This document shows, piece after piece, positions 2,199 through 22,709 of a stretch of DNA of 32,000 nucleotides. The position numbers and the translations under genes were made by a program. The stretch spans positions 17,710-49,709 of the forward strand of contig CAYJVY010000010.1 in the NCBI GenBank assembly GCA_964373795.1. Reading direction: 5' to 3'. This stretch comes from an uncultured archaeon (GTDB taxonomy: Archaea > Iainarchaeota > Iainarchaeia > Iainarchaeales > DATDZZ01). The notes beneath the pieces are model-generated. The model searched no databases and was not told the DNA's origin. It worked only from the letters and a program-made list of their open reading frames with translations. Every line of letters starts with the position of its first letter. The first letter of the stretch is position 1.

Positions 2199-2438
2199 CG
2201 AATTTGATGCGAACTTAGTTTTCTATATGATGTTTTTCCTTGCAGTCAATCCCATTTTTTATTTATTGCATACAAAGCAACAGCTATTGATAGTAGCCCA
2301 AGAGCATTATTGCTAAAGCCACTAGAAAAGCAAACAAGTAAGAAATTGATGCCCATTATTTGCCTCTTTTTACACACCATTACAAGGCAATATAAAATTT
2401 TGTACTCCAACTGTATACAAATGCATAGTAAGAATTAA

Positions 2439-3197
2439 TTATACAGTAGATAGTTTTGAGTTGAGTTTGTTTAGCTTGTTTTTTGCAGTATTTAAATGCT
2501 TTTCAGTTTTTTGTTTTCCTATTGCAAAATTGTCAGCGTTTTTTTCTTCTTGACTAAATAATGATTTCATTTCAGAGAACGCAAATATTGGGGAAATTTT
2601 TGTTAAAAAAAATCCCAAAGACTTTATTTTAGGGGTTTTTGTTTTTATGTGGTATACTTCATGCAATATCACTGATTCTAGTTCTTTTCTTGATAAAAGC
2701 TCTAACAAACCAACAGAAAAAAATATCTTTGCATGAATTGAAGTACTAGAAAACGCTTTTGGAGATATGTCATCTATTAAGAAGATTTTTGGCATTTTCA
2801 TGCCTTCAATTCTTGTTATCTCTTTTATTTTTTCATACAAATCCCCTGAAACGACTTCAGTTGCTTTTAAAGAATACTGGTAAACAAGCGGGGCGACTAT
2901 ATAGCCTAAAATAATTGCCCCCAAAATTGAGACAGGTATTGCTGTCAAATAAGCTGAGGCCATGCATGCAAGAAATGAACCACACTTTAATGAGAACAAA
3001 AAGTAAAGAACTGGGAACACTATTGCGAAAATGTGTGCGTAAATCCAAAAGGTTTTATTAGCTGTTTCTTTTTTCCTGATTTTCCAAAAGGACACTCCTA
3101 AAAGTAGAAGAGATGTTCCAATTGTGAAAATCCCATCAATACTTGAAATGAATGCTGGAATGCATACAGTTGCCATACAAGTGAGATCGGTAAGCAT
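2439..3197 (-). CDS. Membrane zinc metallopeptidase, BlaR1/M56-like signal transducer without an extracellular sensor domain
   Basis: 252 aa. Several N-terminal TM helices, then an HExxH motif (VILHEVYHIK). Located 3 nt downstream of a BlaI-family repressor gene, the canonical BlaI-BlaR1 order. Confidence 0.7.
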   Translation of the reverse strand: MLTDLTCMATVCIPAFISSIDGIFTIGTSLLLLGVSFWKIRKKETANKTFWIYAHIFAIVFPVLYFLFSLKCGSFLACMASAYLTAIPVSILGAIILGYIVAPLVYQYSLKATEVVSGDLYEKIKEITRIEGMKMPKIFLIDDISPKAFSSTSIHAKIFFSVGLLELLSRKELESVILHEVYHIKTKTPKIKSLGFFLTKISPIFAFSEMKSLFSQEEKNADNFAIGKQKTEKHLNTAKNKLNKLNSKLSTV

Positions 3198-3200
3198 TTT

Positions 3201-3575
3201 TTAATCACTTTTTTCTCCAAATCTTTCATTAAAATATGCAATAGCTGTTGAACCAAATTTTTGAATCAATTTGTTGACACTTTTTTCTAAAACCCTTTTT
3301 TCAAATTTTTCTGGACTGATTTTCAATACGTAAGCATATCTATAGCCACCTCTGCAGTTTTCGATCTCTCTTTCAGTGAGCCCTTTTTTATGCAATCTAT
3401 CCAAAAACACTGATACAGTAGTAGGGGAAACTATTTTTTTGTTCCTTTTAAGGGCTTGATGAATATCTTTAGAAATTGATTTACCTTTTTTTCCAAGTAT
3501 ATATAAAATAGCTAACTCCAAATCACTTAAAGCGTCTTTTAATTCATTCTTTATTATGAAACTCTCTCTAATCAT
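3201..3575 (-). CDS. BlaI/MecI/CopY-family winged-helix repressor
   Basis: 124 aa. Motifs: LSDLELAILYILGKKGKSISKDIHQAL ... VSPTTVSVFLDRLHKKGL ... YRYAYVL. No C-terminal CxCxxxxCxC, so it is not a classical CopY metal site. Confidence 0.8.
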   Translation of the reverse strand: MIRESFIIKNELKDALSDLELAILYILGKKGKSISKDIHQALKRNKKIVSPTTVSVFLDRLHKKGLTEREIENCRGGYRYAYVLKISPEKFEKRVLEKSVNKLIQKFGSTAIAYFNERFGEKSD

Positions 3576-3685
3576 GGCATAAATATATTTCCCTAAACCT
3601 TATATAAACATGTCGACTTACACCAATGATTAAGTTTTACAAAAAATGGTAAAGCTTTTAAATAAGTTAGCATTCAAATATAATA

Positions 3686-5131
3686 ATGGTTGGAACAAAG
3701 TATTGCTCTATTTGCGGCCTAAAATCAAAAAAAGGCTTTGAAAAATTTGGTGAAGGCTTTTGCTCAAAAAAACATGCAAATGAATTTGTTCTACAAACCA
3801 GAAAACAAAAACTTGCAAAAGCAAATAGTGGGCAGTCAAGGAAAAAAAGTATTAGTGGTTTTAGTAATTTTTTTACGCCGCTAGAAAATTCTATCAACAT
3901 TTTGTTAAACGAGAAATATGCCAAAACTTTTTTTGTAGCTTTTTCTATTAGCCTGATTTTTTTTAGTTTCCTGAATGGATTGTTTCTAATTCCTTTTCTT
4001 GAAATAGGTTTTGGTAGAATGGCAGAAGTAACAGTTTTTGACTACCTTTATTTGACATTTTCTTCCATACTAATAGCTGTCCTTGTCAGCTTATTTTTTT
4101 ACCAGAGAAATGAGTTAACAAAAACCTTTGATTCTGGAAACCTGGTTGGAACTGGCTCAACTTCTTTGGCAGGATTTCTTGCAGCAATTTGCCCTGTATG
4201 TCAGTCAGTATCACTTGCAGCTTTTGGTGCAACTGTATTAGCTATTCCTTTAGGTCCACTCATTCCAGTTCTTGGCTTTTTAAAATTTTTTGGACTAGGC
4301 TTGCTAGGGTTAAGCGTTTACATTGTTTCCAATAATATTTATAAAAAAACCTGCACAGCTTGTGCCCCAGAGTCACTGCTTGTGGAAAAAAAATTAAGCA
4401 ATTCTTTTCTTGAAGAATTCTTCTTGAAAAACAATTGGGGATTTTCTTTGCTAGTTGTTTTTGGAGTCATTCTAGTATTAAATCAGTTTCTTTTAACCAA
4501 TGCTTTTTCAGGATTTGCTCCACAACCAGGAACTGCTGCATTCTTGACTGCTACTAATGCTATAACAGTTGACGCAAAAAGCGAGTTAAATTATGGGGCA
4601 AAAATTACTATAAAGCCAATGCCTTTAGCCGTGAATGAGGCATCTGCAATAGCTGGATACAAAACAAAAGTAAAATCATTGCCTACAATTAGTGAAATCG
4701 AGGTTACTCCTTCTACAGGTGATCTAACCCAAGATATTGCTAACAATGTAATACCTAAAGGAAAACCTTGGTATAGTGAAGAGACTGGAGGAATTAGTTT
4801 TGATGACGCAATAAAGGCTCAACAGCTTTGGGCTAGAGGAAGAGCAATTCAATTGAGTCCTGAAGAGCAAAAAAGATGGGACAAAATTGTAAATTCTTTT
4901 ACCTGTGATTATTGTTGTGGAAGTCCACAAAACCCCACAATTATTACAAGATGTGGTTGCGCTCATTCGTATGCAGCACAAGGAATGGCGAAATGGTTTA
5001 TAAAAAATTATGGTGACAAGTTCTCTGATGAAGAAATATATGGTGAAATGGCTAGATGGTATGCTTTATGGTATCCAGGGCCAACTGTTAAAAGAATTGT
5101 CCAAGAAATCCAATCACAGTCAAACATTTAA
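3686..5131 (+). CDS. Multidomain membrane protein: N-terminal TRASH-like zinc ribbon, TM region with intramembrane CPVC, C-terminal Cys-cluster domain
   Basis: 481 aa. The N-terminus CSICG-x15-FCSKKH resembles TRASH / zf-FCS. TM helices include GFLAAICPVCQSVSLAAFG. The C-terminal soluble domain carries CDYCCGS-x10-RCGCAHS. Confidence 0.7.
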   Translation: MVGTKYCSICGLKSKKGFEKFGEGFCSKKHANEFVLQTRKQKLAKANSGQSRKKSISGFSNFFTPLENSINILLNEKYAKTFFVAFSISLIFFSFLNGLFLIPFLEIGFGRMAEVTVFDYLYLTFSSILIAVLVSLFFYQRNELTKTFDSGNLVGTGSTSLAGFLAAICPVCQSVSLAAFGATVLAIPLGPLIPVLGFLKFFGLGLLGLSVYIVSNNIYKKTCTACAPESLLVEKKLSNSFLEEFFLKNNWGFSLLVVFGVILVLNQFLLTNAFSGFAPQPGTAAFLTATNAITVDAKSELNYGAKITIKPMPLAVNEASAIAGYKTKVKSLPTISEIEVTPSTGDLTQDIANNVIPKGKPWYSEETGGISFDDAIKAQQLWARGRAIQLSPEEQKRWDKIVNSFTCDYCCGSPQNPTIITRCGCAHSYAAQGMAKWFIKNYGDKFSDEEIYGEMARWYALWYPGPTVKRIVQEIQSQSNI

Positions 5132-5168: not shown

Positions 5169-5399
5169 ATGGCTTTGAAAACAGTATTGCTAGGCGCCTT
5201 GCTAGTAGTAATGGTTATAGTAGGATTGTTGCAAACAGTTCAAATACTTAACCTTAGCACTGCATTGAATTCAGGTGTTGGCTTGGTTACAGCAAAACCT
5301 GCTTCAATTAGTGTGGCTGGTGCAACAGCAAACAGTATAAAATCTACTGGTTCTGCAACTAGTTTGGATAACCTGCCTGGCATGGTTGGCGGATGTTGA
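5169..5399 (+). CDS. Small single-pass membrane protein ending in PGMVGGC, hypothetical
   Basis: AAGGAGGG at 5153-5160. 76 aa: an N-terminal TM helix (LLGALLVVMVIVGLL), a Ser/Ala/Thr/Gly-rich linker, and a terminal LPGMVGGC. Its stop codon overlaps the next gene start (ATGTTGA at 5393-5399). Confidence 0.6.
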   Translation: MALKTVLLGALLVVMVIVGLLQTVQILNLSTALNSGVGLVTAKPASISVAGATANSIKSTGSATSLDNLPGMVGGC

Positions 5400-6805
5400 A
5401 AATTTTTCGGGAAAACACAATGCAGAAGAATTTACTTATTAGTGGCGCATTAATAGCCTTGCTTATAATTGTTTTGTTTAACTCTTTGCAACTTACAGCT
5501 TTGGCTTCTCTAGCCAATGAAAAGACTGCAATAGCAAAAGAAAATTCGAGGCCTGGAAAAATTCAGTTAATAGAGTTGATTGTGCCATGCAGTGATTGCA
5601 TAGGCATTGATTCATTATTAGTTGATTTAAAAAAGCAAAACCTTGAAGTAGTTTCTGAAAAAAGGCTTGCCTCTAATTTGCCAGAGGCACAAAATTTAAT
5701 AAAAGAATTTGGTTTAACCAGGCTTCCAGCACTAATTGTTTTTGGTGAAACAACCAAGCAAAATCAGGTTAAAAGTTTTTTTGAAAAAAATGGTTTTAAA
5801 TTGAATGATTTAAATCAAGCGGTTTTTGAAACAAAAAAAGTGCCTTATTTTGATTTGAAAAATAATTCTGTTAGAGGAAGAGTATCAGTGGTTTCTTTGA
5901 CTGCAAAAGATTGCAGTAATTGTAGCTCTTTTGCAACGCTATTACCCTTGCTGAGAAACCGCGGAATAGTTTTTGATGAAGAAAAATTCTTGGAATTTAA
6001 TTCAAGTGAAGGAAAAGACTTTGTTCAAAAACATGGCTTGCAGAAAGTTCCAGCAATTTTTTTGTCAGAGAACATTCAAGAATACCCTGAAGTTTTTAAT
6101 GCATTAATTAATCAGCTTGGTTTCAAGCAAGGAAAAGGATATATTTTTCGTGAACCGCTTAGCGCGCCCTTTGTTGATGCTTTAAGTGGTGAAACAAAAG
6201 GATTAGTTAAAGCTATTTTTTTGGATGACTCTTCTTGCAATGATTGCTATGATGTGAATATGCATAAACAGATTTTTGACAGGTTTAAATTATTTTTAAA
6301 TGAAGAAGAAACAGTGGAAGTTTCTAGCGAGAAAGGGCAACAATTGATTAGTGATTACAATATTAGCAGAATTCCAACTGTGTTGCTTTCACCAGAAGCA
6401 AAAGAGTATCAAGAACTTGTGAATGTTTGGAGAGCTGTTGGAACAATTGAAGAGAATGATTGGTTTGTTTTTAGAGAGCCTAGTGCGTTATCTGGAGTTT
6501 ATATTGATTTGAATTTGAATTTAATTGTTAATCCAATACTTGTTCTTGGAGCAGAGTTTGAATTTCAGCCAAGCACAATTTCAGTTAAAAAAGGACAACT
6601 TGTTAAAATTACCTTTGTAAATGTTGGGCAAGCAGAGCATGATTTTGTAATTAATGAATTAAATATTAAAACAAAATTATTGAAACCTCAGGAAAGTGAA
6701 ACAATTGAATTCATTGCAGATAAAACCGGAGAGTTTTCTTTTTATTGTTCAGTGGAAGGCCATAAAGAACAGGGAATGAAAGGAACAATCATTATTTCGA
6801 AATAA
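5393..6805 (+). CDS. Membrane-anchored fusion of three thioredoxin-like CxxC modules and a C-terminal type-1 cupredoxin domain
   Basis: 470 aa with an N-terminal TM helix. Three modules each have a CxxC (CSDC, CSNC, CNDC) followed about 45-55 aa later by a cis-Pro-type strand (RLPALIVF, KVPAIFLS, RIPTVLLS). The C-terminus FVNVGQAEHDF ... FYCSVEGHKEQGMKG supplies the His/Cys/His/Met copper ligands. Alternative start at ATG 5420. Confidence 0.8.
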   Translation: MLKIFRENTMQKNLLISGALIALLIIVLFNSLQLTALASLANEKTAIAKENSRPGKIQLIELIVPCSDCIGIDSLLVDLKKQNLEVVSEKRLASNLPEAQNLIKEFGLTRLPALIVFGETTKQNQVKSFFEKNGFKLNDLNQAVFETKKVPYFDLKNNSVRGRVSVVSLTAKDCSNCSSFATLLPLLRNRGIVFDEEKFLEFNSSEGKDFVQKHGLQKVPAIFLSENIQEYPEVFNALINQLGFKQGKGYIFREPLSAPFVDALSGETKGLVKAIFLDDSSCNDCYDVNMHKQIFDRFKLFLNEEETVEVSSEKGQQLISDYNISRIPTVLLSPEAKEYQELVNVWRAVGTIEENDWFVFREPSALSGVYIDLNLNLIVNPILVLGAEFEFQPSTISVKKGQLVKITFVNVGQAEHDFVINELNIKTKLLKPQESETIEFIADKTGEFSFYCSVEGHKEQGMKGTIIISK

Positions 6806-6839
6806 CAGTTTTAATGAAAGAATGTATTAATTTGGTGAT

Positions 6840-7559
6840 TTGTTGGAAAAAGATAAGATTGTTCCAGCTATTTTTGGTTTTTTTTTAATAATTTTAATCA
6901 GTTTGTCTGTGTTTTTTGCATTACCTATGGTTTTTCCAAACAAAAGTAATTCTTCTGTTACATTTTCTTTTGCTGTTCTAAATTCAGATAATTTTTCTAA
7001 GAAGAATTTTACTGAATTTGATAGAAAGCTCGCTATCAAGTTAATGGATAAAGATGAAGATGGAAAATGTGATGCTTGCGGAATGAATGTAGAGTTGTGC
7101 ATGGATTCTGGACAAATAGAGTGTAACATGGTTCCTGGTGCTAAATTTGGAGTGCTTGGCTCTGCACACATCCATGCAAATTTTAAAGTTTTTTTGAATG
7201 GAAAAGAATTTGATTTTGGTCAACAAAAATATGCTGTGAAAAGCAGGTTTATGCATGTAGAAAATGATGTTCCAGAAGAGTTTGGAAAACTCTTACACAT
7301 TCATGCAACTGGCATGCCTTTGTGGCTGTTTTTTGAAAGCCTTGGAATGAAATTAAGCAAAGATTGTTTTGAATTGGATACTGGAGAAAATTTTTGCAGT
7401 AATTCAGATAATTCATTAAATTTTTATGTTAATGGTCAACCAAGTAATGAGTTTCAAGACTATGTCCCAAAAGACAAGGACAAGATTCTGATTAGTTTAT
7501 ATGGCAATGAAACAAATGACATAGGGAAACAATTAGAATCAATTACAAACTATTCTTAG
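6840..7559 (+). CDS. Membrane-anchored extracytoplasmic His/Cys-motif protein (paralog of 7564-8070), family not named
   Basis: 239 aa, TTG start. N-terminal TM helix. Cys4 cluster CDACG...C...C. Then HIHANFKVFLNGKE ... LHIHATG ... LFFESLG ... C...C ... FYVNGQ ... EFQDYVPKDKDKILI. Confidence 0.6.
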   Translation: MLEKDKIVPAIFGFFLIILISLSVFFALPMVFPNKSNSSVTFSFAVLNSDNFSKKNFTEFDRKLAIKLMDKDEDGKCDACGMNVELCMDSGQIECNMVPGAKFGVLGSAHIHANFKVFLNGKEFDFGQQKYAVKSRFMHVENDVPEEFGKLLHIHATGMPLWLFFESLGMKLSKDCFELDTGENFCSNSDNSLNFYVNGQPSNEFQDYVPKDKDKILISLYGNETNDIGKQLESITNYS

Positions 7560-7563
7560 GGAA

Positions 7564-8070
7564 ATGATTTTTATGAATTGGACAAATTTTTTTCTACTTT
7601 TTGCCATTGCTTTTTTGGTTTTTTTTGTTGGATGTGTTTCTGAGCAAAACAGCTTTGACTATCAAGAAGTTCCAAAAGAATTTGTTGTCCCAAAAAACTC
7701 AATCCACTGGCATCCCAAACTACAAATAAAAGTAAACAACCAGCTTCAACAAATCCCAACAGGTATTGGAATAAGCATAGGCAAAATGATTGATTTTGAT
7801 GTAAGTGGAATGAATATGTCTCCAATTCACACACATGAAGGCAATGGCACAATCCACATAGAAAACCAAAAGCCATGGCTAAAACCAGGAACTCTAACAC
7901 TAGGATACTTTTTTCATGTATGGAGCAAAAAATTTAGCAGTGAATGCATTTTTGACTACTGTAATAATGAAAAATCTAAAGTAAAAATGTTTGTCAATGG
8001 AAAAGAAAATCAAGAATTCGAAAAATATGTAATGCAGGACAAGGATGACATCTTGATTGTTTATGAATAA
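7564..8070 (+). CDS. Lipobox/TM-anchored extracytoplasmic His-motif protein (paralog of 6840-7559), family not named
   Basis: 168 aa. Signal peptide with FVGC. Motifs: HWHPKLQIKVNN ... SPIHTHEGNGTIHIE ... TLGYFFHVW ... C....C ... MFVNGKENQEFEKYVMQDKDDILIVYE. Same motif order as the upstream gene. Confidence 0.6.
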   Translation: MIFMNWTNFFLLFAIAFLVFFVGCVSEQNSFDYQEVPKEFVVPKNSIHWHPKLQIKVNNQLQQIPTGIGISIGKMIDFDVSGMNMSPIHTHEGNGTIHIENQKPWLKPGTLTLGYFFHVWSKKFSSECIFDYCNNEKSKVKMFVNGKENQEFEKYVMQDKDDILIVYE

Positions 8071-8625: not shown

Positions 8626-9189
8626 GTGGTACAATTGGATGAATTTAAATGTGAAGTTTGTGAAAGAATTTTTAAATATGAAGATGGTTTGGAATTGCAT
8701 AAACAAGCAAAACACTCAAAACCAGAAAAAAAAGAACCGTTAATTAAAATTTCAAGTGGACAAAAAAAGAAATTTATAAAAACTGCAATAGCTTTAGTTG
8801 TTTTAATTGCTGTAATTGGTTTTGTTTATTATATTATTACCATTCCGAAGGTGGTATTGCCACCAATTACTATACAAGGACATATTGAACAAAAGCCTTC
8901 AAGTCATATTTTAAAAGAACCAATGGAATTAAGAGTGCAAAAGCATATGTTAGAACATGCAGATGGAACTGGGCCTCCAGGAATAATAATAAATTATAAT
9001 TGTGAAGATTTTAACTGTGAACCGGATTTAATTTTAAATCTTGAAAAATTTGCAAAAAAGTATCCAGTAAATGTATATGTTGCGCCTTTTAATGGAATGA
9101 CTGAAAAAATAGTGTTAACAAAATTTCAAAAACTGCAAAAATTAGATAATTATGATGAAAAATTAATTGAAAATTTCATAAAAAATTAA
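8626..9189 (+). CDS. C2H2 zinc finger - TM helix - DUF3105-like extracytoplasmic domain protein
   Basis: 187 aa. The start is uncertain: GTG 8626 lies inside AAGGTGG, and TTG 8635 has better spacing. FKCEVCERIFKYEDGLELHKQAKH fits C-x2-C-x12-H-x4-H. TM helix AIALVVLIAVIGFVYYII. Then HMLEHADGTGPPGIIINYNC ... VYVAPFNGMTEKIVLT ... LIENFI, which matches my memory of DUF3105. Confidence 0.65.
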   Translation: MVQLDEFKCEVCERIFKYEDGLELHKQAKHSKPEKKEPLIKISSGQKKKFIKTAIALVVLIAVIGFVYYIITIPKVVLPPITIQGHIEQKPSSHILKEPMELRVQKHMLEHADGTGPPGIIINYNCEDFNCEPDLILNLEKFAKKYPVNVYVAPFNGMTEKIVLTKFQKLQKLDNYDEKLIENFIKN

Positions 9190-11563: not shown

Positions 11564-12781
11564 TCAGCCAATTAGAATTTCTTTTAATGTGTTAAATGAA
11601 AACAAGTTTTTTGTGGGCGTTTCTGAAAGCAAGCTATGTGAAATTAGTTTTGATATTTGTTTGTTTTTAGAAGCATTTTTTATTGCCAAATTAAGTATGA
11701 ATTTGTTTGTTAAAATTTTTTGAATTTTTAAATCAGTTGAAAGTTCTTGCCATATTGCCTCATAAAGAAGATTTTCGTATTCTTTTAATTTATTTTCACT
11801 GAAATTATTTTCTTTAATAGATTGTAATAAAACTTGGGAAGCAACTTTCCCGCTCAAAAGTGCATTTCCAATTCCTTCCCCTGTAAAGGGATCTATTAAA
11901 CCAGCTGCATCCCCTACAAATAATACTCTGTCAAAAGAAATTTTTCTTTTTTTTAATCCACCTAATGGAAGAGTCCAGCCTTTTATTTCTGAAATCATTT
12001 TAGCGTTTTTAAACCTGTCTTTAAAATGCGGATTTTGAAGTATTTTGAATAAAATATCTTTTAGGTTTTTTTTATCAGAATATTTTAAGTGGATTCCTAA
12101 TCCGACATTTGCAGTTGTATTAGATATAGGAAAAATCCAAAAATAACCTGGAATTAGTTCATTAACAAAATGAATTTCAAGTCTATTGCTTAAACCATTT
12201 ACATTTTCAAAATATGCTCTTAATGCAATTGCTTCTGAATCTGTAAAATCAATTCCTAATTGTTTACTGGCAAAACAAGTAGAGCCGTTTGCGAACACAA
12301 TTGATTTTGTATTAAAAGTTACATGTTTATGGGTTTTAATATTTTTTGCTGAAACTAGAATAGAATCACTTTTTACTTCAAAATTTTTTACTTCAATTCC
12401 TTCCAAAACCTTTGCAACTTGTTTTGCTTTTTCAAATAAAATATTGTCAAAATTTTTTCTTTTTATGACAATTCCGCAGGTTTTTTTATTTTCCGCGTCA
12501 ATTGAAACATTTAATCCATTAGGCGAAGAAAATAACACTCCTTTTATTTTTTCATGTTCGAATTTTTCTATTTCTTCAATTAAATCCATTTCTCTCAATA
12601 AAGAAATGGATTTTCCGCTTAAGCCATCTCCACATGGCTTATCTCTAGGAAAAAATTCTTTGTCAACTAACAATACTTTTGCATTTGATTCTCTCAAAAA
12701 AATTACAGTAGAACTTCCAGCAGGTCCTGCCCCAACTACTAAAACATCAAAAATTTCTTCCAATTTTTCGCCTTTTAACAA
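11564..12781 (-). CDS. Geranylgeranyl reductase family FAD-dependent oxidoreductase (archaeal lipid saturation)
   Basis: 405 aa, TTG start. FDVLVVGAGPAGSS dinucleotide fold. VLLVDKEFFPRDKPCGDGLS matches the PRxKxCG signature. VLFVGDAAGLIDPFTGEGI. Confidence 0.9.
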   Translation of the reverse strand: MLKGEKLEEIFDVLVVGAGPAGSSTVIFLRESNAKVLLVDKEFFPRDKPCGDGLSGKSISLLREMDLIEEIEKFEHEKIKGVLFSSPNGLNVSIDAENKKTCGIVIKRKNFDNILFEKAKQVAKVLEGIEVKNFEVKSDSILVSAKNIKTHKHVTFNTKSIVFANGSTCFASKQLGIDFTDSEAIALRAYFENVNGLSNRLEIHFVNELIPGYFWIFPISNTTANVGLGIHLKYSDKKNLKDILFKILQNPHFKDRFKNAKMISEIKGWTLPLGGLKKRKISFDRVLFVGDAAGLIDPFTGEGIGNALLSGKVASQVLLQSIKENNFSENKLKEYENLLYEAIWQELSTDLKIQKILTNKFILNLAIKNASKNKQISKLISHSLLSETPTKNLFSFNTLKEILIG

Positions 12782-12828: not shown

Positions 12829-13245
12829 TTAATGTTTTTTGAATGTTTTGGCACAGTATTTACAACAAAAATTTGTTTTCCTTCCCTTAATTTTTTTTGT
12901 ATAGCGACTTTCAAAAACTTTACAACCGCAATGGACACAAACAGTCAATCTTGGAGAAATACTTAATTCAATTAACTCTCCAAATCTCGACAGAATTTTT
13001 TTAATAAACTTTTCTCCTTCTAAAGTTAATGAATAAACTTTTTTCTCTCTTTGCTTTTTTTCTTTTGAAACAATTAATTTATTTTTTTCAAGCAATGCAA
13101 GAAAAGGATATATTTGCCCCGGGGAAACTTTTTTCTCTGATTTTTCTGAAACTTTTTTAATTAATTCATATCCGTGCATAGATTTTGAGTTTAACAGCAT
13201 TAGAGCATAAAATTTAGTTAAATTGTCTATTTTTATTTTATCCAT
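12829..13245 (-). CDS. PadR-family winged-helix regulator fused to a C-terminal TRASH metal-binding domain
   Basis: 138 aa. PadR core: ALMLLNSKSMHGYELIKKV ... SPGQIYPFLALLEKNKLI ... KVYSLTLEGEKF. C-terminus: CVHCGC-x19-FCCKYCAKTF (TRASH: Cys pair ... C-x3-C). Divergent from copA. Confidence 0.8.
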   Translation of the reverse strand: MDKIKIDNLTKFYALMLLNSKSMHGYELIKKVSEKSEKKVSPGQIYPFLALLEKNKLIVSKEKKQREKKVYSLTLEGEKFIKKILSRFGELIELSISPRLTVCVHCGCKVFESRYTKKIKGRKTNFCCKYCAKTFKKH

Positions 13246-13286
13246 ATCATATTTTGATGCGAAAAGGTTTAAAAGAAGTTACATTT

Positions 13287-13300
13287 TATGATATATCATA
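13287..13300. promoter_or_regulatory. Perfect 14-bp palindrome TATGATATATCATA in the PadR-TRASH / copA divergent intergenic region
   Basis: Read directly. Related ATATCATAT / TATGATAT copies lie at 13246-13256 and 13302-13309. A TTTAAA TATA-like box at 13268-13273 is about 25 nt from the PadR ATG. Confidence 0.5.
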
Positions 13301-13590
13301 TTATGATATTATAAGTGTCACTTAAAAAATTAATGTGTATATTTAGAGGAAGTAATCCTATTGATTGTCATTAAAAAAAATAAAGTTGAAAAATTTAAAG
13401 TGCATTCTCTGGGCGGGCCAATTTAGAGGCGTTTAATTGACAAATGAATTAAATATAAAAGCATTGGATTGTGCAGTAATTGCTGCAGGATTAATTGCGT
13501 GGGTTTACAATTTTTCTTTGAAAAAATTTAGTTAGTTTTGAATTCATTAAATTTTTAAACAACAAAAGTACTGTATTAATGAGGTTTAAT

Positions 13591-16248
13591 ATGGCAAAAG
13601 ATCCAAATTGTGGAATGACTGTGGATGAAAAAAAAGCAAAGTTTGTTTCCAATAAAGGTGGAAAGAAAACTTATTTTTGTTCATTAAATTGTTTGAAGAC
13701 TTTCGAATCCAAACATGGTTCGAAAGCTTCTTCCGCAAAAACTACAAAAATGCCAGAAAAAATAGCGCTTAAAAATTCAAAAATTGAAGGCACTAATTCG
13801 AAACTTATTTCAATTACTGGAATGCATTGTGCTTCTTGTTCTCAAACAATTGAAAAAGCATTAACAAAACTGCCAGGAGTTGTTTCTGCTAATGTTAATT
13901 TTGCTTCTTCTAAAGCATTAGTGAAATACGATGCAAGTAAAGTTGGGGAAAAAGAATTTTTTTCCGCAGTTGAAAAATCAGGATATGGGGTAGTTAAAGA
14001 AGAATTTGGTGGAGAAGGAAAAGAGATTTTAGCAAAGATTGATATAATTGGAATGAGTTCACAACATTGTGTTGGAGTTGTAGAACAAACCCTGCATAAA
14101 TTACATGGATTAGACAATATAAAAGTTAATCTTGGAACACAAACAGCAGAATTCCTTTATAATAAAGAGAAAATTTCTTTGCAGGAAATAATTTCTGCAA
14201 TAAAGAATTCTGGATATGAGGCAAGAATTGCTTTGCCTGAAGATAAGGAAAAAATCGCTCGCGAAAAAGAAATTCAGGAATACAAATTCAAATTCGTGGT
14301 TTCTTTTTTGCTTTCTGCTCCTTTGATGATTTTCGCAATAGGCCCGGCAGTAGGAATTGTTTTGCCTGAATTTATTAAGCAAAACTTTTTAGCAATTCAA
14401 TTTCTTTTAGCAACTCCTGTAATTCTTATAGGTTACAAATTTTTCACAAACGGTTTCAGAGCTCTTTTCATTAACAGAATTCCAAACATGGATTCTTTGG
14501 TTGCATTAGGAGTAGGAGCCGCTTATGTTTGGAGTATTTTTTCTTCTCTGCAAATTCTTTCTGAAATTCCAGGATTTGGAGTGGACTCATTATATTATGA
14601 AATATCTGCATTTTTGTTGACATTCATCATTTTAGGAAAATATTTGGAAGCAGTTGCAAAAGGCAAAACTTCTGAAGCAATCAAAAAACTTTTAGGCTTG
14701 AAGCCAAAAACTGCTTTTGTTGAACGCGCAGGAAAAGAATTGGAAATTCAAATTGACGAGGTTCTAATAGGAGATATTGTAATAGTAAAACCTGGACAAA
14801 AAATTCCAGTTGATGGAACAGTTGTTTCTGGAGACAGTTATGTTGATGAATCAATGATTTCAGGAGAACCATTGCCTGTGCACAAAATTGTTGGCAGTAA
14901 AGTAATTGGTGCAACAATTAACAAACAAGGTTTTTTCAAATTTCGTGCAGAAAAAGTTGGCAGTGAAACAATGTTGGCTCACATTATTAGAATGGTTGAA
15001 GAAGCTCAAGGCTCTAAAGCTCCAATTCAAGAATTTGCTGACAGAATTTCTTCATGGTTTGTTCCAGTAGTTATTGCTTTAGCAATTATTTCTTCTCTTG
15101 CATGGCTTTTAGTTGGCCAGCCTTTTTTGTTTGTTTTACAAATATTTATTACTGTTTTAATTATTGCTTGTCCTTGTGCTTTAGGTTTAGCTACTCCTAC
15201 TGCTGTAATGGTTGGCACTGGTTTAGGAGCTCAAAATGGAATTTTATTCAAATCAGCTGCTTCTTTGCAGAAAGCCCATGAAGTTCAAACAATTGTTTTT
15301 GATAAGACTGGCACGCTTACAAAAGGCAAGCCAGAAGTAACAAATATTGTTTCAGTGAATGGAAAAAAAGATTTAGATGTTTTAAGTTTTGCAGCTATTG
15401 CTGAAAAAAATTCAGAGCATCCATTAGCTGAAGCAATTTTAAACAAAGCTAATTCTTTAAAGTTAAAAGTTGTTTCTCCAAAAAATTTTGAAGCAGTTTC
15501 AGGTAAAGGAGTTAATGCTTTTTTTAAGGGAACAAAAATTCTTGTAGGAAATAAAAAATTTTTTTTAGAGCAAAAAATTTCTTTTAAAGAACTTGAAGAA
15601 AAAATTTTTGCGCTGGAATTAGAAGCAAAAACAGTTGTATTAATTGCAGTTAATGGAAAGCTTTTAGGTGCAATAGCTATTGCTGATTCTTTAAAGGATT
15701 TCTCTAAAGAAGCTGTTCAAGAACTTCATAATTTAGGAAAAGAGATTGTAATGATTACTGGAGACAATAAGACTACTGCTGAAGCAATTGCTAAACAAGT
15801 AGGCATTGATTTTGTTTTAGCAGAGGTTTTACCCGAACAGAAAGCTCAAAAAGTTAAAGAACTTCAGTCTTCGGGAAAAAAGGTTGCATTTGTTGGAGAC
15901 GGAATTAACGATGCCCCTGCATTAGCTCAATCAGATGTTGGAATTGCAATTGGTTCTGGAACTGATATTGCAATTGAAGCAGGAGAAATTGTTTTAATTA
16001 AAAATGATTTAAGAGATGTTGTTACAGCAATTGATTTATCTGCTTACACTATTAGAAAGATTAAGCAAAACTTTTTTTGGGCATTTATTTACAATGTTGC
16101 TGGTCTTCCATTAGCTGCAGGAATTTTATATCCTTTAATTGGATGGCTTTTAAATCCAGTTATTGCTGGAATTGCAATGGCTTTTTCCTCTGTATCAGTT
16201 GTATCCAATACCTTGCTAATGAAGGGCTTTAAGCCTAGAATAAAGTGA
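13591..16248 (+). CDS. copA: Cu(I)-translocating P1B-type ATPase
   Basis: GAGG at 13581-13584 favours ATG 13591 over ATG 13579. N-terminal TRASH/YHS-like CGM-x20-FCSLNC. HMA 1 has GMHCASC; HMA 2 is degenerate (GMSSQHC). Also [44 protein letters not shown]. Confidence 0.95.
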
Positions 16249-17711: not shown

Positions 17712-20700
17712 TTATTTGCATTGGAAATTGTCATATGTTTCATATTTTGGAGGGTAAGAGGTTATTATACTTCCATCGCTTCCAACAATTGTTGCCATGA
17801 ATTTTGCTCCAATTTTTAGTAAATAGCACTCTTTTGGAGGTTTTCCGTCAATTGTTTTGCCTAGCAATTTTTTTCCAGGATTTTTAATTGACTCAAATAT
17901 TTTAGACTGAATTATTTCGTTGTCATTTAGCCCAATTTTTGCAAAATCTCCACTATCAACATGTTTTGTTTTTATGTGTTGCCAGCCCTTGTATTGGTTT
18001 CCTTCTTCTAGCCATTTTATTTGTTTGCCTGAGTCTTCTGCTACATTAATTGTTTTTTTCAAGTCGCCTCCTTTTTCTAGAACTGTTTCCATGTTTTTTA
18101 CTGGAACATTTTTTGTGTTCTTTAATCTATTTATTGCTTCGACTCCATCGTCTCCGTAATGCTTTAACAAATTCGGCAACGCATCAATTGTTTCTTTTTT
18201 TGCTCCTCTTTCGAATAGTATTCCTAGATTTTTTAATTCCTTTAACTGTGTTTTGTTAAACGTTCTAGTAATAGTACTTTTCACTCCTTTTGTTACTACT
18301 TCAAAAGTGATTTTTGCTTTTTTTGCGATTTTAACTAGATTTTCAACAGCATTTGCTATCTTGCTTAATTTGTACCATTTTTTTGCAGAATCTAAGACTC
18401 TGACTGTTTTTACACTAGCGATTCCAAAATCTACTAAAGGGCCATCAGCTGGAACTATTATTGCTATAACATTTCCAACACTTAAAAGTGTATCCACTAA
18501 TCCCCATATAGTCCATTCTCCTCTACACCAATCTCCAAAAGCAAATTCGCAAGCAATATTGAATCCAAGATCCGCAAAAGTCTTATCTGCGTTATCCTCT
18601 AATTCCAGTATTTCAACATCAATTGTTGATACAGTTCCATCTGGCAACAAATTATTTTCACTGCCATTAAGCACAGCAAAAGATGTTCCGCCAAATTGTT
18701 TGCTTAAATATTGTGTTCCATCCATTACTCCGTCTCCGTCAGAGTCTTTTTTTATAGGATTTGTTCGTGTAACAGTTGTTTCCTCTAAATCTGTTAAACC
18801 ATCGTTATCTGTGTCTTCTTTGAATGCATTTGTTCCATAAACTTTTAATTCATGATAGTCATCTAAACCATCATCATCTGAATCTTTTTTGTTTGGATCT
18901 GATCTTAATGCATAATAGTTTCCGCCGATTGGTAGAATTGTTACTTCTCCCATTTCAAATCCATCGCTTACTCCGTCTCCATCAGAATCATATTTTTGTG
19001 GATCTGTGTAAATGTATTTGAATGTTCCTGTTCGCATTCCACTTGATTCTTCATTATTTGTTAATCCATCTCCATCTGAATCTGGGGCTATTAAAATGCT
19101 TTTACAAGCAGAATTATCGAATTCGCTTGATTCTGCAATTACGTTGTCTGGATCTAGTACTAGGCAAACTCTTTCAACTCCGTATTCTGCATACCAAGTT
19201 ATTTGTGTTAGCCTCATGCTGTTGCCTGCAATGCTTGAAATTGTTGTTGAAGAAATCTCTGTTCCAGTAGAGTTATTTCTTCTAAATGAAACTTTTACAT
19301 TGTTTGCTGTTTCAGTGTCGTTGTTTCTTATATTTGCTTTTATTTTAATTGCATTGCCAGATAAGTATGTGTTTTGGAAATCAATTATTCCATTCCATGT
19401 TTTTCCATATGGATTGGAATTTGACAAAAAATAACTGCTAAAATGAGTTGTTTTTCCCCAGACGTATTTTTCTGTGGAGTTTATTCCTTGAATTTCTAAT
19501 GGTTTGAAAACCATTTTTTCTTCGTCTAAATAATAAAGCCTTAATTCGTTTGATTGTAAGCCTTTTAATTCTTCTTCTGTGTAATAGAATCTCATTTCTG
19601 CTTCATTGAATGAGTTATTACCTTTAATGTTAAATTTTGCTCCTTTGATTAAAGTAGTTGTATCAACTGTTGAAGGCAAATCAGTTGGATCTTCAACTAT
19701 CGAGATTTTTTTCCTCAAGTCTCCTTTTCCTGTGACAATTAGTTTTGTGTCTTGGCTTTGTGTTGGAATTTCTTGAATAAATATTTCTTGCCCATCTGGA
19801 ATTCCATCATTATCTGAATCATTTGTTAAAATATTTGTGCCAAAAGAGATTTCTGCTTCGTCATTTAATCCGTCTCCATCTGAATCTTTTGAAATTGGAT
19901 TTGAATGAAGTTCATTTATTTCTTTGTAGTCTGTTATTCCATCAAAATCAGAATCGTTTGTGTCAGGATTTGTTCCAAAATTAAATTCCTGTAATGCTGT
20001 CAAACCATCTCCATCCAAATCAATTAATGCATCACTTGAAATTGAATCTGTTGAAGTTTGATTTGGATTTGTTCCTTGAATAAATGCTTCAAAATAATCA
20101 TTTAATCCATCTCCATCCGAGTCAGCATTAAATGGATTTGTTTTTCCTTTGAATTCCTCTAAATTATTTAATTTGTCGCCATCAAAGTCTTCATCTGCAT
20201 CACTTACGCCATCAAAATCAGAGTCTTTTAGTAATGGGTTTGTAAGTAAAACATTTTTTTCATAGTCTTCTGGAAGAGTGTCCCCATCAAGCAAAAATGT
20301 TTTTTCCCATGTAGATTCATTTCCCGCAATATCTCTTGCAATAATTTTGTATTGGTTTTCTCCAAGGATAAACTTTGAATTGAATACAAACAAACCATTT
20401 TCATCAACATTTAAAGTTAAATTGTTTAACGTGACATAAATTCCTGGCTCTGTTTCTCCTATTATCAAGTACTCTGATTCCTCTATTGTTGTATCTGTAA
20501 TAGAGTCATTAATTGAAAGCATTGGAGGGGTATTGTCAATGATTATTTGTGTTGATTTTTCCGCTGTATTTCCTGCCTTGTCTTCTGCTGTTATTTTTAA
20601 TTCGTGTGAACCGTCTTCAAATTCTGTTGTGTTTAAATTGAATGGTAGTATTGAGTTTAAAAAATTTGAATCTAAAAATACTTGGAGTTGTTTCAAGTTT

Positions 20701-22709
20701 TTTTCTATTATGTTTGCGTTCACGGAAACAATTTGCCTTAAATGGCTTCCAGTGCTTGGATTAATGTTTTCAATTTTTGGAGGAGTGTTGTCAAATTCTA
20801 CTTGAGTTGTTTTTTCGTTTTCGTTCCCTGCTTTGTCGTTTGCATAATATTTTATTTCATGCAATCCGTCAGCGTACTTTGTAGAGTCAACTTGGTAAGG
20901 CAAATGATTTGATATCTGCAGACCATCTATGAAGAGTTTTGTTAAATCTAAGTACAAGTCGTAAGTGCTTCCAAGTACATCAAATACCCCTCGCAGAAAT
21001 GCTCCTGTCAAAGGATAAGTAATTTCAATGCTTGGAGGAGTTTTGTCTATTACGAAACTCACTTGCTTTGTTGCAGTGTTTCCTGCTTTATCTGTTGAAG
21101 AAACTAAAAGCAAGTGCTCGAATTCTGTTGAAATAATTTCTCCCAAAACATATGCTTGGTTGTTGAGTAAAAAAGTATTCGTGTCAGGGTTTAGTTCTAC
21201 TACATTAATTAATGGAAGCACGTTTGAATTGTAGAATTTTCCTTCTTCTATTCCTGTAATAAATATTTTTGGAAGAGTGTTGTCGACTGTTACTTGAATT
21301 GTTGTTGTGTTAGTGTTTCCTGCTAGGTCTTTTGCAAATAAAAGAATTTCATGTAATCCATCTGATGCTTCATTTAAAGTGTTCCAGTTAAAGGAATTAT
21401 TTTGAGTTTTTGCTTGGCCATCTATTCTCCATTCAAGAAAATTAAAGTATTTATCTGTTGCAGTGCCTGAAACACTAATGTTTTGTCTCAAGAAAGAATT
21501 GTGCAGAGGAGAAATTATTTTTACTTCTGGAGGAGTTTTATCTATTGCAAATTTGTATTCTAGAATCGATTCGTTTCCTGCTAAGTCTTTTGCTGTTGCG
21601 CGTAAAATATATTCGTTTTCATTAGAGACCTTGGATCCTGAAACAAATTCTGCAGAATTCAAAGTTGTTTGTGTTTCACTTAAATGCTTGTCTATGATTA
21701 AAATTTCAGGATTCAAATCATAATTGTAGTAAGAATTGTTTTCTACTCCTAAAAATTCAATTTTTGGAGGAGTAATGTCTAAAACTATTTCAATGCTTTC
21801 ACTTTTCCCTGTATTGCCGAATCTGTCAGTTGAAAAAACAGTAACTAAATTATTTCCATCTACTAATGGAACAGTTCCAGAATAAACCCCGCTAATCAAA
21901 GGGAACTCGTAATTTGAGTCATTCACTTGAACTACAACTGAATTAATTGTCTGCAATTGTACATCCCAAACAGTTCCAGAAACTGTTTGCATTTCTTGGT
22001 TTGTGTAAATGTTTGTTTGCGGAGATGAAATAAAAACTAAAGGAATTGTGAATTCATCTAGTAAGCTTAGGCCAGCAAATCCTTCAATCCAGGAGTTCTT
22101 GAAGTGTTCTATTGAATTAGGCGAGTTACCTATGTTCAACTGGTGTTGTGCCTTGTCATAGCTTTCTTTTGCTTTCTGTAAATGGTTTGAAGCCTGCAGG
22201 AAAACGTTTTCATCTTCTATTTCTGGTAGAACCTTTTCAATTACTTCAATCAAGTTTTTGGAAATATTTTGATCTGCTTGTACAAGCCTACTTATTGCAA
22301 ACAATAGTTTGTTGTTATCCAGATTAGAGCTCTCCCTATTGTAAAGAGTTCTTATGAAATTTCCTGCTTTTTTTTCGAAAACAAAAACATTTGCATCCAA
22401 AATCAAGTCTTGCGTAATCCAGAATTCTGGTTTAAGGCTTGCCTCGACATTTGAATCTGCTTGCAAAAGCTTGTCAAGATCGTCTTCAACTGCTTCTGGA
22501 ATCAGTTCCTGTAAAAAACTTCTTGCTTGATTTTTCAACTCAAAAGGAGTCAAGTTTTCTTGTGTAAAAACCAATTCTGTGTCATTCAAATTATTCTGTG
22601 CATTCCCGGCTGCAAAAGCGCTGGAGAAGAATACAGTTATGAATAGCAAAACACAAATGCTTTGCCAAAACTTTTTTTCCACACGCATAAATATCATCTT
22701 TCTATCCAA
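17712..22709 (-). CDS. Giant secreted/anchored surface protein: Ig-like repeat array, TSP3-like Ca-binding repeats, CARDB-like domain, pre-toxin-like segment and short variable C-terminal tip (polymorphic-toxin-like)
   Basis: 1665 aa with an N-terminal hydrophobic signal (ICVLLFITVFFSSAFA). At least six repeats of about 95 aa, of the form (I/V)DKTPP ... DGLHE ... (A/T)KD(L/K)AGN ... DNTPP. Two blocks of D-x-D-x-DG-x-x-D repeats (DSDGDGLND, DSDFDGITD, DTDNDGLTD). ANIRNNDTETANNVKVSF looks CARDB-like. Hydrophobic WGLVDTLLSVGNVIAIIVPADGPLVDFG. The last 96 aa start at GNQYKGWQHIKTKH. Confidence 0.85.
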   Translation of the reverse strand: MDRKMIFMRVEKKFWQSICVLLFITVFFSSAFAAGNAQNNLNDTELVFTQENLTPFELKNQARSFLQELIPEAVEDDLDKLLQADSNVEASLKPEFWITQDLILDANVFVFEKKAGNFIRTLYNRESSNLDNNKLLFAISRLVQADQNISKNLIEVIEKVLPEIEDENVFLQASNHLQKAKESYDKAQHQLNIGNSPNSIEHFKNSWIEGFAGLSLLDEFTIPLVFISSPQTNIYTNQEMQTVSGTVWDVQLQTINSVVVQVNDSNYEFPLISGVYSGTVPLVDGNNLVTVFSTDRFGNTGKSESIEIVLDITPPKIEFLGVENNSYYNYDLNPEILIIDKHLSETQTTLNSAEFVSGSKVSNENEYILRATAKDLAGNESILEYKFAIDKTPPEVKIISPLHNSFLRQNISVSGTATDKYFNFLEWRIDGQAKTQNNSFNWNTLNEASDGLHEILLFAKDLAGNTNTTTIQVTVDNTLPKIFITGIEEGKFYNSNVLPLINVVELNPDTNTFLLNNQAYVLGEIISTEFEHLLLVSSTDKAGNTATKQVSFVIDKTPPSIEITYPLTGAFLRGVFDVLGSTYDLYLDLTKLFIDGLQISNHLPYQVDSTKYADGLHEIKYYANDKAGNENEKTTQVEFDNTPPKIENINPSTGSHLRQIVSVNANIIEKNLKQLQVFLDSNFLNSILPFNLNTTEFEDGSHELKITAEDKAGNTAEKSTQIIIDNTPPMLSINDSITDTTIEESEYLIIGETEPGIYVTLNNLTLNVDENGLFVFNSKFILGENQYKIIARDIAGNESTWEKTFLLDGDTLPEDYEKNVLLTNPLLKDSDFDGVSDADEDFDGDKLNNLEEFKGKTNPFNADSDGDGLNDYFEAFIQGTNPNQTSTDSISSDALIDLDGDGLTALQEFNFGTNPDTNDSDFDGITDYKEINELHSNPISKDSDGDGLNDEAEISFGTNILTNDSDNDGIPDGQEIFIQEIPTQSQDTKLIVTGKGDLRKKISIVEDPTDLPSTVDTTTLIKGAKFNIKGNNSFNEAEMRFYYTEEELKGLQSNELRLYYLDEEKMVFKPLEIQGINSTEKYVWGKTTHFSSYFLSNSNPYGKTWNGIIDFQNTYLSGNAIKIKANIRNNDTETANNVKVSFRRNNSTGTEISSTTISSIAGNSMRLTQITWYAEYGVERVCLVLDPDNVIAESSEFDNSACKSILIAPDSDGDGLTNNEESSGMRTGTFKYIYTDPQKYDSDGDGVSDGFEMGEVTILPIGGNYYALRSDPNKKDSDDDGLDDYHELKVYGTNAFKEDTDNDGLTDLEETTVTRTNPIKKDSDGDGVMDGTQYLSKQFGGTSFAVLNGSENNLLPDGTVSTIDVEILELEDNADKTFADLGFNIACEFAFGDWCRGEWTIWGLVDTLLSVGNVIAIIVPADGPLVDFGIASVKTVRVLDSAKKWYKLSKIANAVENLVKIAKKAKITFEVVTKGVKSTITRTFNKTQLKELKNLGILFERGAKKETIDALPNLLKHYGDDGVEAINRLKNTKNVPVKNMETVLEKGGDLKKTINVAEDSGKQIKWLEEGNQYKGWQHIKTKHVDSGDFAKIGLNDNEIIQSKIFESIKNPGKKLLGKTIDGKPPKECYLLKIGAKFMATIVGSDGSIITSYPPKYETYDNFQCK
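17999..18069. repeat. 71-nt near-identical direct repeat, copy B (partner 16807-16877)
   Basis: Lies inside the giant gene and encodes GDLKKTINVAEDSGKQIKWLEEG, immediately before the 96-aa C-terminal tip. Confidence 0.9.

Follow-up and report, generated by a model that had tools for sequence, protein, structure and literature searches.

A PadR–TRASH fusion family as a predicted copper sensor of Archaea

Can a TRASH metal-binding module be joined to a PadR DNA-binding domain to make a copper switch? The question is raised by a 32-kb stretch of DNA from an uncultured archaeon (contig CAYJVY010000010.1, assembly GCA_964373795.1; the whole stretch is called the window below), archaeal by content (it encodes GatE and a geranylgeranyl reductase) and with 31% GC, in which the gene for a small PadR–TRASH regulator lies divergent from a copper ATPase gene, copA. 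Our computational analysis of this locus and of its relatives points, with good probability, to a small dimeric repressor of the PadR-s2 type that controls copper export genes and is released from DNA by Cu(I) or Ag(I). Because the family keeps the same 21-base palindrome before itself and before copper pumps, PadR–TRASH proteins are predicted to be, very probably, a second and undescribed type of archaeal copper sensor. That the protein binds this motif, which metal it senses and that it represses instead of activating are predictions. Features of the window and of related loci (numbered L001 and so on) are collected in Table 1.

The N-terminal part of the regulator matches the Pfam PadR model (E=1.3e-16) with 60.8 bits, where the cut-off is 27, and all 29 aligned homologues match it too. 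In an AlphaFold2 (AF2) model of the full-length protein (predicted local distance difference test, pLDDT, 90.3), a winged helix-turn-helix (wHTH; helices at residues 9–20, 25–36 and 42–54, beta wing at 58–73) is followed by one long helix (75–99), beyond which residues 100–137 fold into three short beta-hairpin elements plus a helix. Compared by Foldseek with the Protein Data Bank (PDB), the regulator matched exclusively PadR-s2-type structures (1xma, 3elk, 5zhc, TA0346, Rv3488, RosR and LmrR) over its first 90–97 residues; a PDB sequence profile search agreed, with matches spanning residues 8–95. PadR-s2 proteins consist of a wHTH and a single C-terminal dimerisation helix, about 110 residues in all (PMC3506622). 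Judged by its wHTH and single modelled helix, the window regulator is a PadR-s2 protein, for which a dimer is expected, and it deviates from the PadR-s2 plan by an extra domain of ∼40 residues beyond the dimerisation helix.

This extra domain is a cysteine module. The C-terminal 36 residues carry the pattern CVHCGC-x17-FCCKYCA, numbered C103-x2-C106-x-C108 and F126-C127-C128-x2-C131-A132. A first-pass annotation of this DNA had recognised both the PadR wHTH and the module; the two domains stand, and the interval of 19 residues that it gave between CGC and FCC is corrected to 17. The spacing C103-x2-C106-x20-C127-x3-C131 fits the TRASH pattern C-x2-C-x19-22-C-x3-C (motif of Ettema et al. 2003) and is unchanged in 28 of 28 full-length homologues. 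C103, C106, C108, F126, C127, C128 and C131 are invariant in the alignment and A132 nearly so, the six invariant cysteines comprising the four of the TRASH motif and two extra. Across the family, 21 of 29 members match PF24273 (TRASH_HVO_1752_C; best E=9e-7), 3 match PF08394 (Arc_trans_TRASH; 5.8e-5) and 11 match Ta0938, and the YHS and zf-FCS models are matched as well; the window protein itself gives weak matches to the Ta0938 and ATPase-cat_bd models. A domain-only AF2 model of the module (pLDDT 88) resembles ribosomal L24e/Rlp24 (query-normalised TM score, TMq, 0.69–0.74; root-mean-square deviation ∼2 Å across 41–42 residues), and further matches are 2das (‘TRASH domain of ZMYM5') and an FCS finger, with TM scores of about 0.6–0.74 overall. 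When the TRASH part was searched against PDB sequences, weak matches were obtained to Ta0938 (0.005), which has the FCCxxCA motif in common with the module, and to ZMYM5 (0.022). Membership of the module in the TRASH group is thus supported, at the level of sequence and model, because motif, fold and family-level profile matches agree. We take it to be the metal sensor by analogy with CopR, where TRASH senses copper (PMC7830388).

A PadR–TRASH fusion on a single contig could have been a frameshifted two-gene arrangement, a candidate explanation that the homologues rule out. Among 5.8 billion proteins we found 57 full-length homologues with 41–60% identity and about 99% coverage, from metagenome-assembled genomes (MAGs) of Aenigmarchaeota, Diapherotrites, Woesearchaeota and Hydrothermarchaeales; the closest come from DPANN-type MAGs, and those that have a name are labelled only ‘PadR family transcriptional regulator'. 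At E<=1e-30, 61 clusters covering both domains were recovered from 1.84 billion representatives by profile search. GTDB, at one genome per species, was scanned with the C-terminal peptide C[AV]HCGCKV alone, taken from a nine-sequence C-terminal alignment; 210 of the 343 stretches recovered were confirmed, so that at least 210 species genomes encode the regulator. They belong mostly to Bathyarchaeia, and also to Woesearchaeota, Aenigmatarchaeota, Hadarchaeota, Methanosarcinales, Methanocella, Nitrososphaerales, Geothermarchaeales and the Asgard Borrarchaeum. Eighty of the confirmed loci were kept for analysis of open reading frames (ORFs), neighbourhoods and motifs, and in 79 of these the PadR N-terminus lies on the same ORF as the C-terminal peptide, the lone exception being truncated at a contig end. 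A metagenome scan with the full-length alignment was keyed on a generic PadR peptide and returned mostly ordinary PadR genes, with family members only in L001–L005. The fusion is a real conserved family, since the 57 homologues and 79 of 80 loci carry both parts, and is neither specific to this contig nor an artefact. The architecture also appears to be undescribed, as first proposed: no account joining PadR with TRASH was found in the literature searched, including work mentioning the TRASH domain; searches on PadR, copper and archaea returned only an unrelated Halobacterium PadR without TRASH, and those on Rv3488 with cadmium and on HVO_1752 returned no description of it.

Alignment of the upstream regions of orthologues revealed a common 21-bp palindrome, ATATATC-N7-GATATAT. 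The 32 kb were scanned with a weight matrix derived from 11 loci, the window not among them, and this gave only two matches of at least 8 bits, both beside the regulator. The first, O1, is the top match in the window (18.7 bits), a score reached in 0 of 300 shuffles (maximum 17.4). The second, O2 (7.8–8.4 bits), mirrors in its placement the operator that abuts the copA ATG in L004. Four of the five ATGATAT/ATATCAT 7-mers of the whole window sit within 66 nt, and in none of 1,000 dinucleotide shuffles did a stretch of 70 nt contain more than two of them. Copies of ATATCATA/TATGATAT occur at 13244–13251, 13287–13294, 13293–13300 and 13302–13309.

These results sharpen the earlier view of the spacer. 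The 14-bp palindrome TATGATATATCATA at 13287–13300, from which that view started, is exact and unique in the window, but it is not the operator: its left half (CATTTTATGATAT) is kept only in some loci (window, L087, L090 and L004), and ATATATC-N7-GATATAT is common to all. The conserved unit is the palindrome ATATCA-N5-TGATAT at 13293–13309 (17 bp; 21 bp at 13291–13311), formed by the right half of TATGATATATCATA and the flanking half-site at 13302–13309, while the TATGATATATCATA left half looks like the TATA side of a divergent promoter. The half-site copies that had been reported on either side of the palindrome are real, although the left one begins at 13244, not at 13246 (its end was given as 13256), and overlaps the start codon. 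That the half-sites belong to a conserved operator motif is supported by their recurrence at a fixed distance in other loci, and the ATATCAT/ATGATAT sites noted between the two genes are part of it, lying beside the regulator and ∼270–290 nt from copA. The TTTAAA box described earlier is present at 13268–13273, 23 nt from the regulator ATG, and would direct a near-leaderless transcript; the same promoter order recurs in orthologous loci.

In a leave-one-out analysis, 11 of 13 loci showed one strong site (16–27 bits) upstream of the regulator, usually centred 54–56 nt before its ATG (56 nt for O1), and L091, L092 and L093 also carry the motif there. A site of at least 12 bits occurs at the equivalent place in 31 of the 80 distant GTDB loci, in genomes ranging from 35 to 63% GC. 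The orthologous promoters have the order operator, 12–16 nt, TATA, about 24 nt, ATG. In compact divergent loci such as L083, L087 and L090, the operator lies 24–30 nt from the neighbour's ATG. The spacing of the motif resembles the canonical PadR operator, an inverted repeat of ATGT/ACAT with half-sites 8–10 nt apart (PMC3506622); the half-site itself (ATATC/GATAT) differs, which leaves the PadR assignment intact because operator sequence is no criterion of family membership.

Further sites precede genes other than the regulator's own, in L004 and L124 at a distance of kilobases from it. In L004 (7551–7571) a 27.6-bit site abuts the ATG of a distal copA in the order TATA, 5 nt, operator, ATG. 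A 32.9-bit site in L124 (2649–2669) is joined directly to the TATA box that serves an operon of a Met-rich membrane protein followed by copA, and a 26.5-bit site in L110 (2049–2069) is found a few hundred nucleotides upstream of an ATPase core match whose start was not located. The operator merges into the TATA box as GATATATTTATAT in L124, L126, L118 and L096. In L126, L118 and L170, junctions of this type stand before genes for small membrane proteins rich in Met, Gly and Trp, and in L096 before an unrelated 138-residue ORF. Some of the small proteins have a SHOCT-like tail, and in L004 a similar protein of 90 residues is encoded immediately behind the regulator (3501–3773). We regard these uncharacterised proteins as probable parts of the copper regulon.

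We then consider the genes around the regulator. The window copA encodes an ATPase with the complete Cu(I) P1B-1 signature (CPC in TM4, N-x6-YN-x4-P in TM5, M-x2-SS-x5-N in TM6, and DKTGT). Its N-terminus, read by the first-pass annotation as a TRASH/YHS module fronting the divergent copA, is indeed YHS-like (25.5 bits, under the cut-off of 30.3), with two HMA domains next to it. The true start is likely the second ATG, at 13591, which has GAGGT ahead of it and from which the protein begins MAKDPNCGM; the divergent spacer then measures 345 bp, as originally given, and 333 bp if counted to the first ATG at 13579. A survey of PadR–TRASH genes beside P1B ATPases, suggested at the outset, found P-type ATPases next to the regulator in 10 of 12 close-relative contexts, nine with the CPC/N-x6-YN-x4-P/M-x2-SS Cu(I) signature and one (L090) with CPH, and a P1B ATPase within 6 kb in 24 of the 80 GTDB loci. 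The small genes that intervene in L083/L084 and L087–L090 encode DUF5676 or another small membrane protein, or an HMA protein resembling CopZ, and the close-relative loci repeatedly have genes for cupredoxin, multicopper oxidase and thioredoxin/DsbA in the vicinity. In L088 the copper ATPase is split into two ORFs, one with the HMA and E1-E2 part (2053–3045) and one with the hydrolase part (3069–4523), by either a frameshift or pseudogene formation or an assembly error. The window itself has copper-related genes 5–8 kb upstream of the regulator (5393–6805, 6840–7559 and 7564–8070), one of them for a thioredoxin–cupredoxin fusion protein. The 168-residue product of 7564–8070 is homologous (E=2e-46) to that of the gene just downstream of the regulator in L089, a weaker second copy lying at 7251–7496; no operator-like site was found in this cluster (5393–8070).

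A different synteny characterises a large Bathyarchaeia subclade (L098, L114, L122, L125, L129, L132, L135, L136, L143, L153, L157, L161 and L173), where the regulator, at about 5690–6150, is divergent from a conserved protein of ∼460 residues dependent on flavin adenine dinucleotide (FAD) and not from an ATPase; the upstream motif, where detected (e.g. L122, L135, L143 and L173), is the half-degenerate ATATATCTAAAAAACATTTAT. The sequence comparisons indicate that the link to copper export is strong for the window's clade and not universal across the family.

How does this protein relate to the known copper regulators? That archaeal CopR/CopT proteins join an Lrp/AsnC domain to TRASH, which the first-pass annotation had stated, is confirmed by PMC7830388, and we compared P. 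furiosus PF0739, T. onnurineus CopR, S. solfataricus CopR/CopT and H. salinarum VNG1179C. They share with PadR–TRASH proteins a helix-turn-helix at the N-terminus and a C-terminal TRASH, copper as the predicted effector, a gene divergent from or beside copA, and sites in the shared promoter region. The scaffolds differ: CopR is an Lrp/AsnC octamer with a weak semi-palindromic motif, which in P. furiosus wraps about 150 bp, is encoded divergently from copA and both represses and activates (PMC7830388), whereas PadR–TRASH is a PadR-s2 protein, expected to be a dimer, with a sharp 21-bp palindrome. Its module has six invariant cysteines (CxxCxC...CCxxC) and no His-rich tail, against four (C-x2-C-x19-22-C-x3-C) in CopR. 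No Lrp/AsnC-type Pfam match was found in the window regulator at E<=0.1; lacking this defining scaffold in both sequence and model, it is not a member of the CopR family, although by analogy it probably works like one.

The PadR-s2 proteins compared (LmrR, bcPadR1/2, Rv3488, TA0346 and RosR) share with it the wHTH and single C-terminal helix, the nearest fold and sequence matches, an inverted-repeat operator of comparable spacing and, as predicted for PadR–TRASH, autoregulation together with control of a neighbouring efflux transporter. They stop after the dimerisation helix (∼110 residues) and sense organic ligands in the dimer pore; the PadR–TRASH proteins have the appended Cys-rich TRASH of ∼40 residues, and half-sites of ATATC/GATAT in place of ATGT/ACAT. 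With other TRASH/YHS modules (Ta0938, ribosomal L24e, MYM/FCS zinc fingers and the YHS domains of ATPases) the C-terminal part has in common the C-x2-C ... C-x3-C spacing and a treble-clef-like fold of beta-hairpin and helix, but these modules are stand-alone, ribosomal or attached to transporters, and none is joined to a PadR domain. CopY of Enterococcus hirae, a small dimeric winged-helix repressor of the copA/copB operon with a C-terminal CxCx4CxC, is released from DNA by exchange of Zn for Cu(I). It differs from PadR–TRASH in its BlaI/MecI-like DNA-binding family, its Cys motif and the lack of a TRASH fold; no sequence relationship to it was detected, and no search aimed at one was made.

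Taken together, these comparisons suggest how the switch could operate. The metal-free or Zn-loaded dimer would bind ATATATC-N7-GATATAT, in the window O1 and the weaker O2, and occupation of O2 would cover the regulator's own transcription start and ATG. At copA, at copZ and at the genes for small Met-rich membrane proteins, family members have such sites over or directly next to the TATA box or the transcription start, so a bound dimer could block recruitment of TBP/TFB or of RNA polymerase, repress the cop genes and also autoregulate the regulator gene. Cu(I), and probably also Ag(I), on the TRASH thiolates would shift the geometry of the dimer, with release of DNA and derepression as the outcome; the Cys cluster directly follows the dimerisation helix and could alter the relative placement of the two wHTH domains. 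Exchange of Zn for Cu(I), as in CopY, is a plausible model for this step.

Several observations weigh against a copper-released repressor. The window protein matches PF24273 with only 18.4 bits (E=0.0025), under the gathering cut-off of 27, and the Foldseek E-values of the module are only 0.2–1, because the domain is just 43 residues long. O2 alone is not significant, as 28% of shuffles score as well somewhere in 32 kb. No operator-like site is present in 13312–13600, on the copA side of O1 (best matrix score −9.4). In 56 of 80 GTDB loci there is no ATPase within 6 kb, and in L082 (180–1479) a close paralogue (53% identity) overlaps the gene of a cation diffusion facilitator (CDF; Cation_efflux) and has no operator motif, which suggests a family branch with different metal and DNA specificity; given these two facts, some of the family may respond to different metals or control different regulons. 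Finally, at the regulator's own promoter O1 stands upstream of the TATA box, where some archaeal regulators activate, P. furiosus CopR being a dual repressor and activator (PMC7830388).

This last point makes an activator or dual regulator possible, which would stay bound upstream of TATA and stimulate transcription when copper binds, like the CopR of Saccharolobus and Pyrococcus. In most loci the operator at the regulator's own promoter has its centre ∼56 nt before the ATG, upstream of BRE (the TFB recognition element) and TATA, and P. furiosus CopR is reported to repress without copper and to activate with it (PMC7830388). We nevertheless consider activation unlikely. The L004 copA operator, between TATA and ATG, occupies a typical repressor position; in L124, L126, L118 and L096 the operator runs into TATA; and in the compact divergent loci it sits 24–30 nt from the neighbour's ATG. 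Repression is favoured because of these three placements, between TATA and start, over TATA, or close to a divergent start codon. Characterised members of the PadR family are, moreover, mostly repressors. An altogether different proposal is that the cysteines form a structural zinc ribbon only, serving folding or oligomerisation, the protein responding to another signal or being a constitutive autoregulator whose proximity to copA is incidental. Its TRASH-fold relatives L24e and the MYM/FCS fingers are structural Zn modules, and both the GTDB loci devoid of a nearby ATPase and the Bathyarchaeia subclade syntenic with the FAD protein would be in keeping with it. Yet the operator recurs before copA/copZ operons even kilobases from the regulator, Cu ATPases adjoin it in nearly all close relatives (10 of 12), two extra invariant cysteines beyond the TRASH four argue for more than one structural site, and deletion of TRASH lowers the metal sensitivity of CopR (PMC7830388). 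A purely structural role therefore seems to us very improbable, and repression relieved by Cu(I)/Ag(I) the best explanation.

Whether this repression extends to copA in the window is less clear. The centre of O1 is 278–290 nt from copA, compared with 9–66 nt to the next gene elsewhere. An operator close to copA was tried as a candidate and rejected by the matrix scan described above. Since O1 is ∼270–290 nt away, copA could be controlled here only through a transcript with a long leader that starts beside O1, and direct control by this site is uncertain. We infer such a plus-strand transcript only by analogy: a TATA-like element precedes O1 on that strand, and in L087 the same CATTTTATGATAT–operator arrangement also precedes the divergent DUF5676 gene, at the position expected for the divergent TATA box. 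It is possible, though on balance we doubt it, that regulator and copA are uncoupled in this genome, O1 and O2 serving autoregulation only and copA having an unregulated promoter of its own near 13550. The operator-free and unusually long spacer, a TATA-like TTTTTAAA at 13552–13559, about 25–35 nt before the copA start codons, and T-runs at 13512–13516 (in the 3′ part of a small ORF) and 13536–13539 (just past it) would fit this arrangement. Set against it are the conservation of the copA-facing CATTTTATGATAT–operator module with L087, where it drives a divergent cop operon, and the small ORF itself, which may be related to membrane proteins co-transcribed with copA elsewhere.

This ORF of 32 residues is in frame with an upstream ORF of 23 residues (13365–13436) across a single TAA. 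Its C-terminus, AGLIAWVYN, weakly resembles those of the L083 (78 residues) and L087 (DUF5676) proteins (p about 0.004–0.012). It has no Pfam match, and tblastn and Pfam searches of the spacer for a decayed DUF5676 or copZ gene gave nothing significant; from its sequence the ORF may be a decayed gene or a mini-protein akin to the membrane proteins found between regulator and ATPase. No structured RNA or riboswitch was found in 13312–13600 (fold z-score −1.4), and an Rfam scan of the window returned only two tRNAs. The spacer also contains two pairs of direct repeats, TGTCAyTwAAAAAAwTAAwGT at 13316–13336 and 13366–13386 (81% identity, 50 nt apart) and ATTTAGAGG at 13341–13349 and 13421–13429 (exact, 80 nt apart), both of which resemble a TATA-like stretch or a Shine–Dalgarno-like element.

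We regard PadR–TRASH as a presumed copper switch that uses TRASH but binds DNA through another scaffold; it is widespread, has a well-defined operator and is uncharacterised. Experimental work on archaeal copper sensing has so far concerned the Lrp/AsnC–TRASH CopR of a few cultivated thermophiles and halophiles; here a second and structurally simpler architecture is encoded in at least 210 species-level genomes, mostly of uncultivated archaea. Its sharp operator makes the regulon (copA, copZ and small Met-rich membrane proteins) readable from sequence. The comparison with CopR presents TRASH as one metal-sensing module that can be plugged into unrelated DNA-binding scaffolds. More tentatively, and with somewhat more doubt than conviction, large uncultured lineages (Bathyarchaeia, DPANN, Hadarchaeota, some methanogens, Nitrososphaerales and Asgard) could have PadR–TRASH as their main copper sensor, in functional replacement of the octameric Lrp-type CopR, with its PadR–TRASH cluster of six Cys and one His forming a polynuclear Cu(I)–thiolate centre in a dimeric switch, possibly by displacing structural Zn as in CopY. 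If this is true, the ATATATC-N7-GATATAT regulon would extend to the small Met-rich membrane proteins, so far uncharacterised, which would then be new components of copper handling. The regulator is small enough for immediate biochemistry and structural work, and could be used in archaeal genetics as a compact part that responds to copper or silver.

Table 1. Features of the window and of related PadR–TRASH loci (coordinates are those of the window unless a locus is named).
Feature	Location	Strand	Remarks
PadR–TRASH regulator gene	12829..13245	-	138 aa plus stop, ATG start; ORF, PadR Pfam match, homologues
PadR winged helix-turn-helix	13000..13203	-	aa 15–82; PF03551
PadR-s2 dimerisation helix	12949–13023	-	aa 75–99, single and long; AF2 model
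TRASH-type Cys module, presumed metal sensor	12832..12948	-	aa 100–138; invariant Cys, family Pfam matches, fold
Main operator O1, ATATATCATATTATGATATTA	13291..13311	.	consensus ATATATC-N7-GATATAT; centre 13301, 56 nt from regulator ATG
Weaker operator-like site O2, CCATATCATATTTTGATGCGA	13242..13262	.	between regulator TATA-like box and start codon, overlaps ATG
Regulator TATA-like box, TTTTAAAC	13268..13275	-	direct reading; for predicted near-leaderless transcript
Candidate TATA-like element, CATTTTATGA	13282..13291	+	for a transcript starting just past O1, ∼13312–13318
Hydrophobic small ORF, 32 aa	13437..13535	+	TTG start; weak similarity to small membrane proteins
copA, P1B-1 Cu(I)/Ag(I)-type ATPase	13579..16248	+	TIGR01511, 624 bits vs cut-off 397
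copA YHS domain	13597–13707	+	E=1.3e-5
copA HMA1	13807–13986	+	
copA HMA2	about 14038–14229	+	
Geranylgeranyl reductase	11564–12781		
GatE (GatB_N + GAD + GatB_Yqey)	29311–31209		
ATPase directly divergent from PadR–TRASH gene	L081, L091		
Divergent ATPase beyond one to three small genes	L083/L084, L087, L088, L089, L090		
ATPase downstream of regulator	L085/L086		4 nt, co-directional
copA near regulator	L004		1.7 kb from regulator
HMA-domain membrane protein	L092/L093		downstream of regulator
CDF transporter	L082		beside regulator
Small Met/Gly/Trp-rich membrane proteins	L124 2755–3090, L126 1393–1692, L118 3438–3761, L170 888–1256		directly behind operator and TATA

Two other genes of the window may be mentioned. 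A DUF3105 protein with a weak N-terminal C2H2-type zinc-finger-like motif is encoded on the plus strand at 8626–9189. On the minus strand, 17712–22709 encodes a secreted or surface-type protein of 1665 residues with many Ig-like repeats and Asp-rich repeats of the calcium-binding type (DSDxDGxxD).

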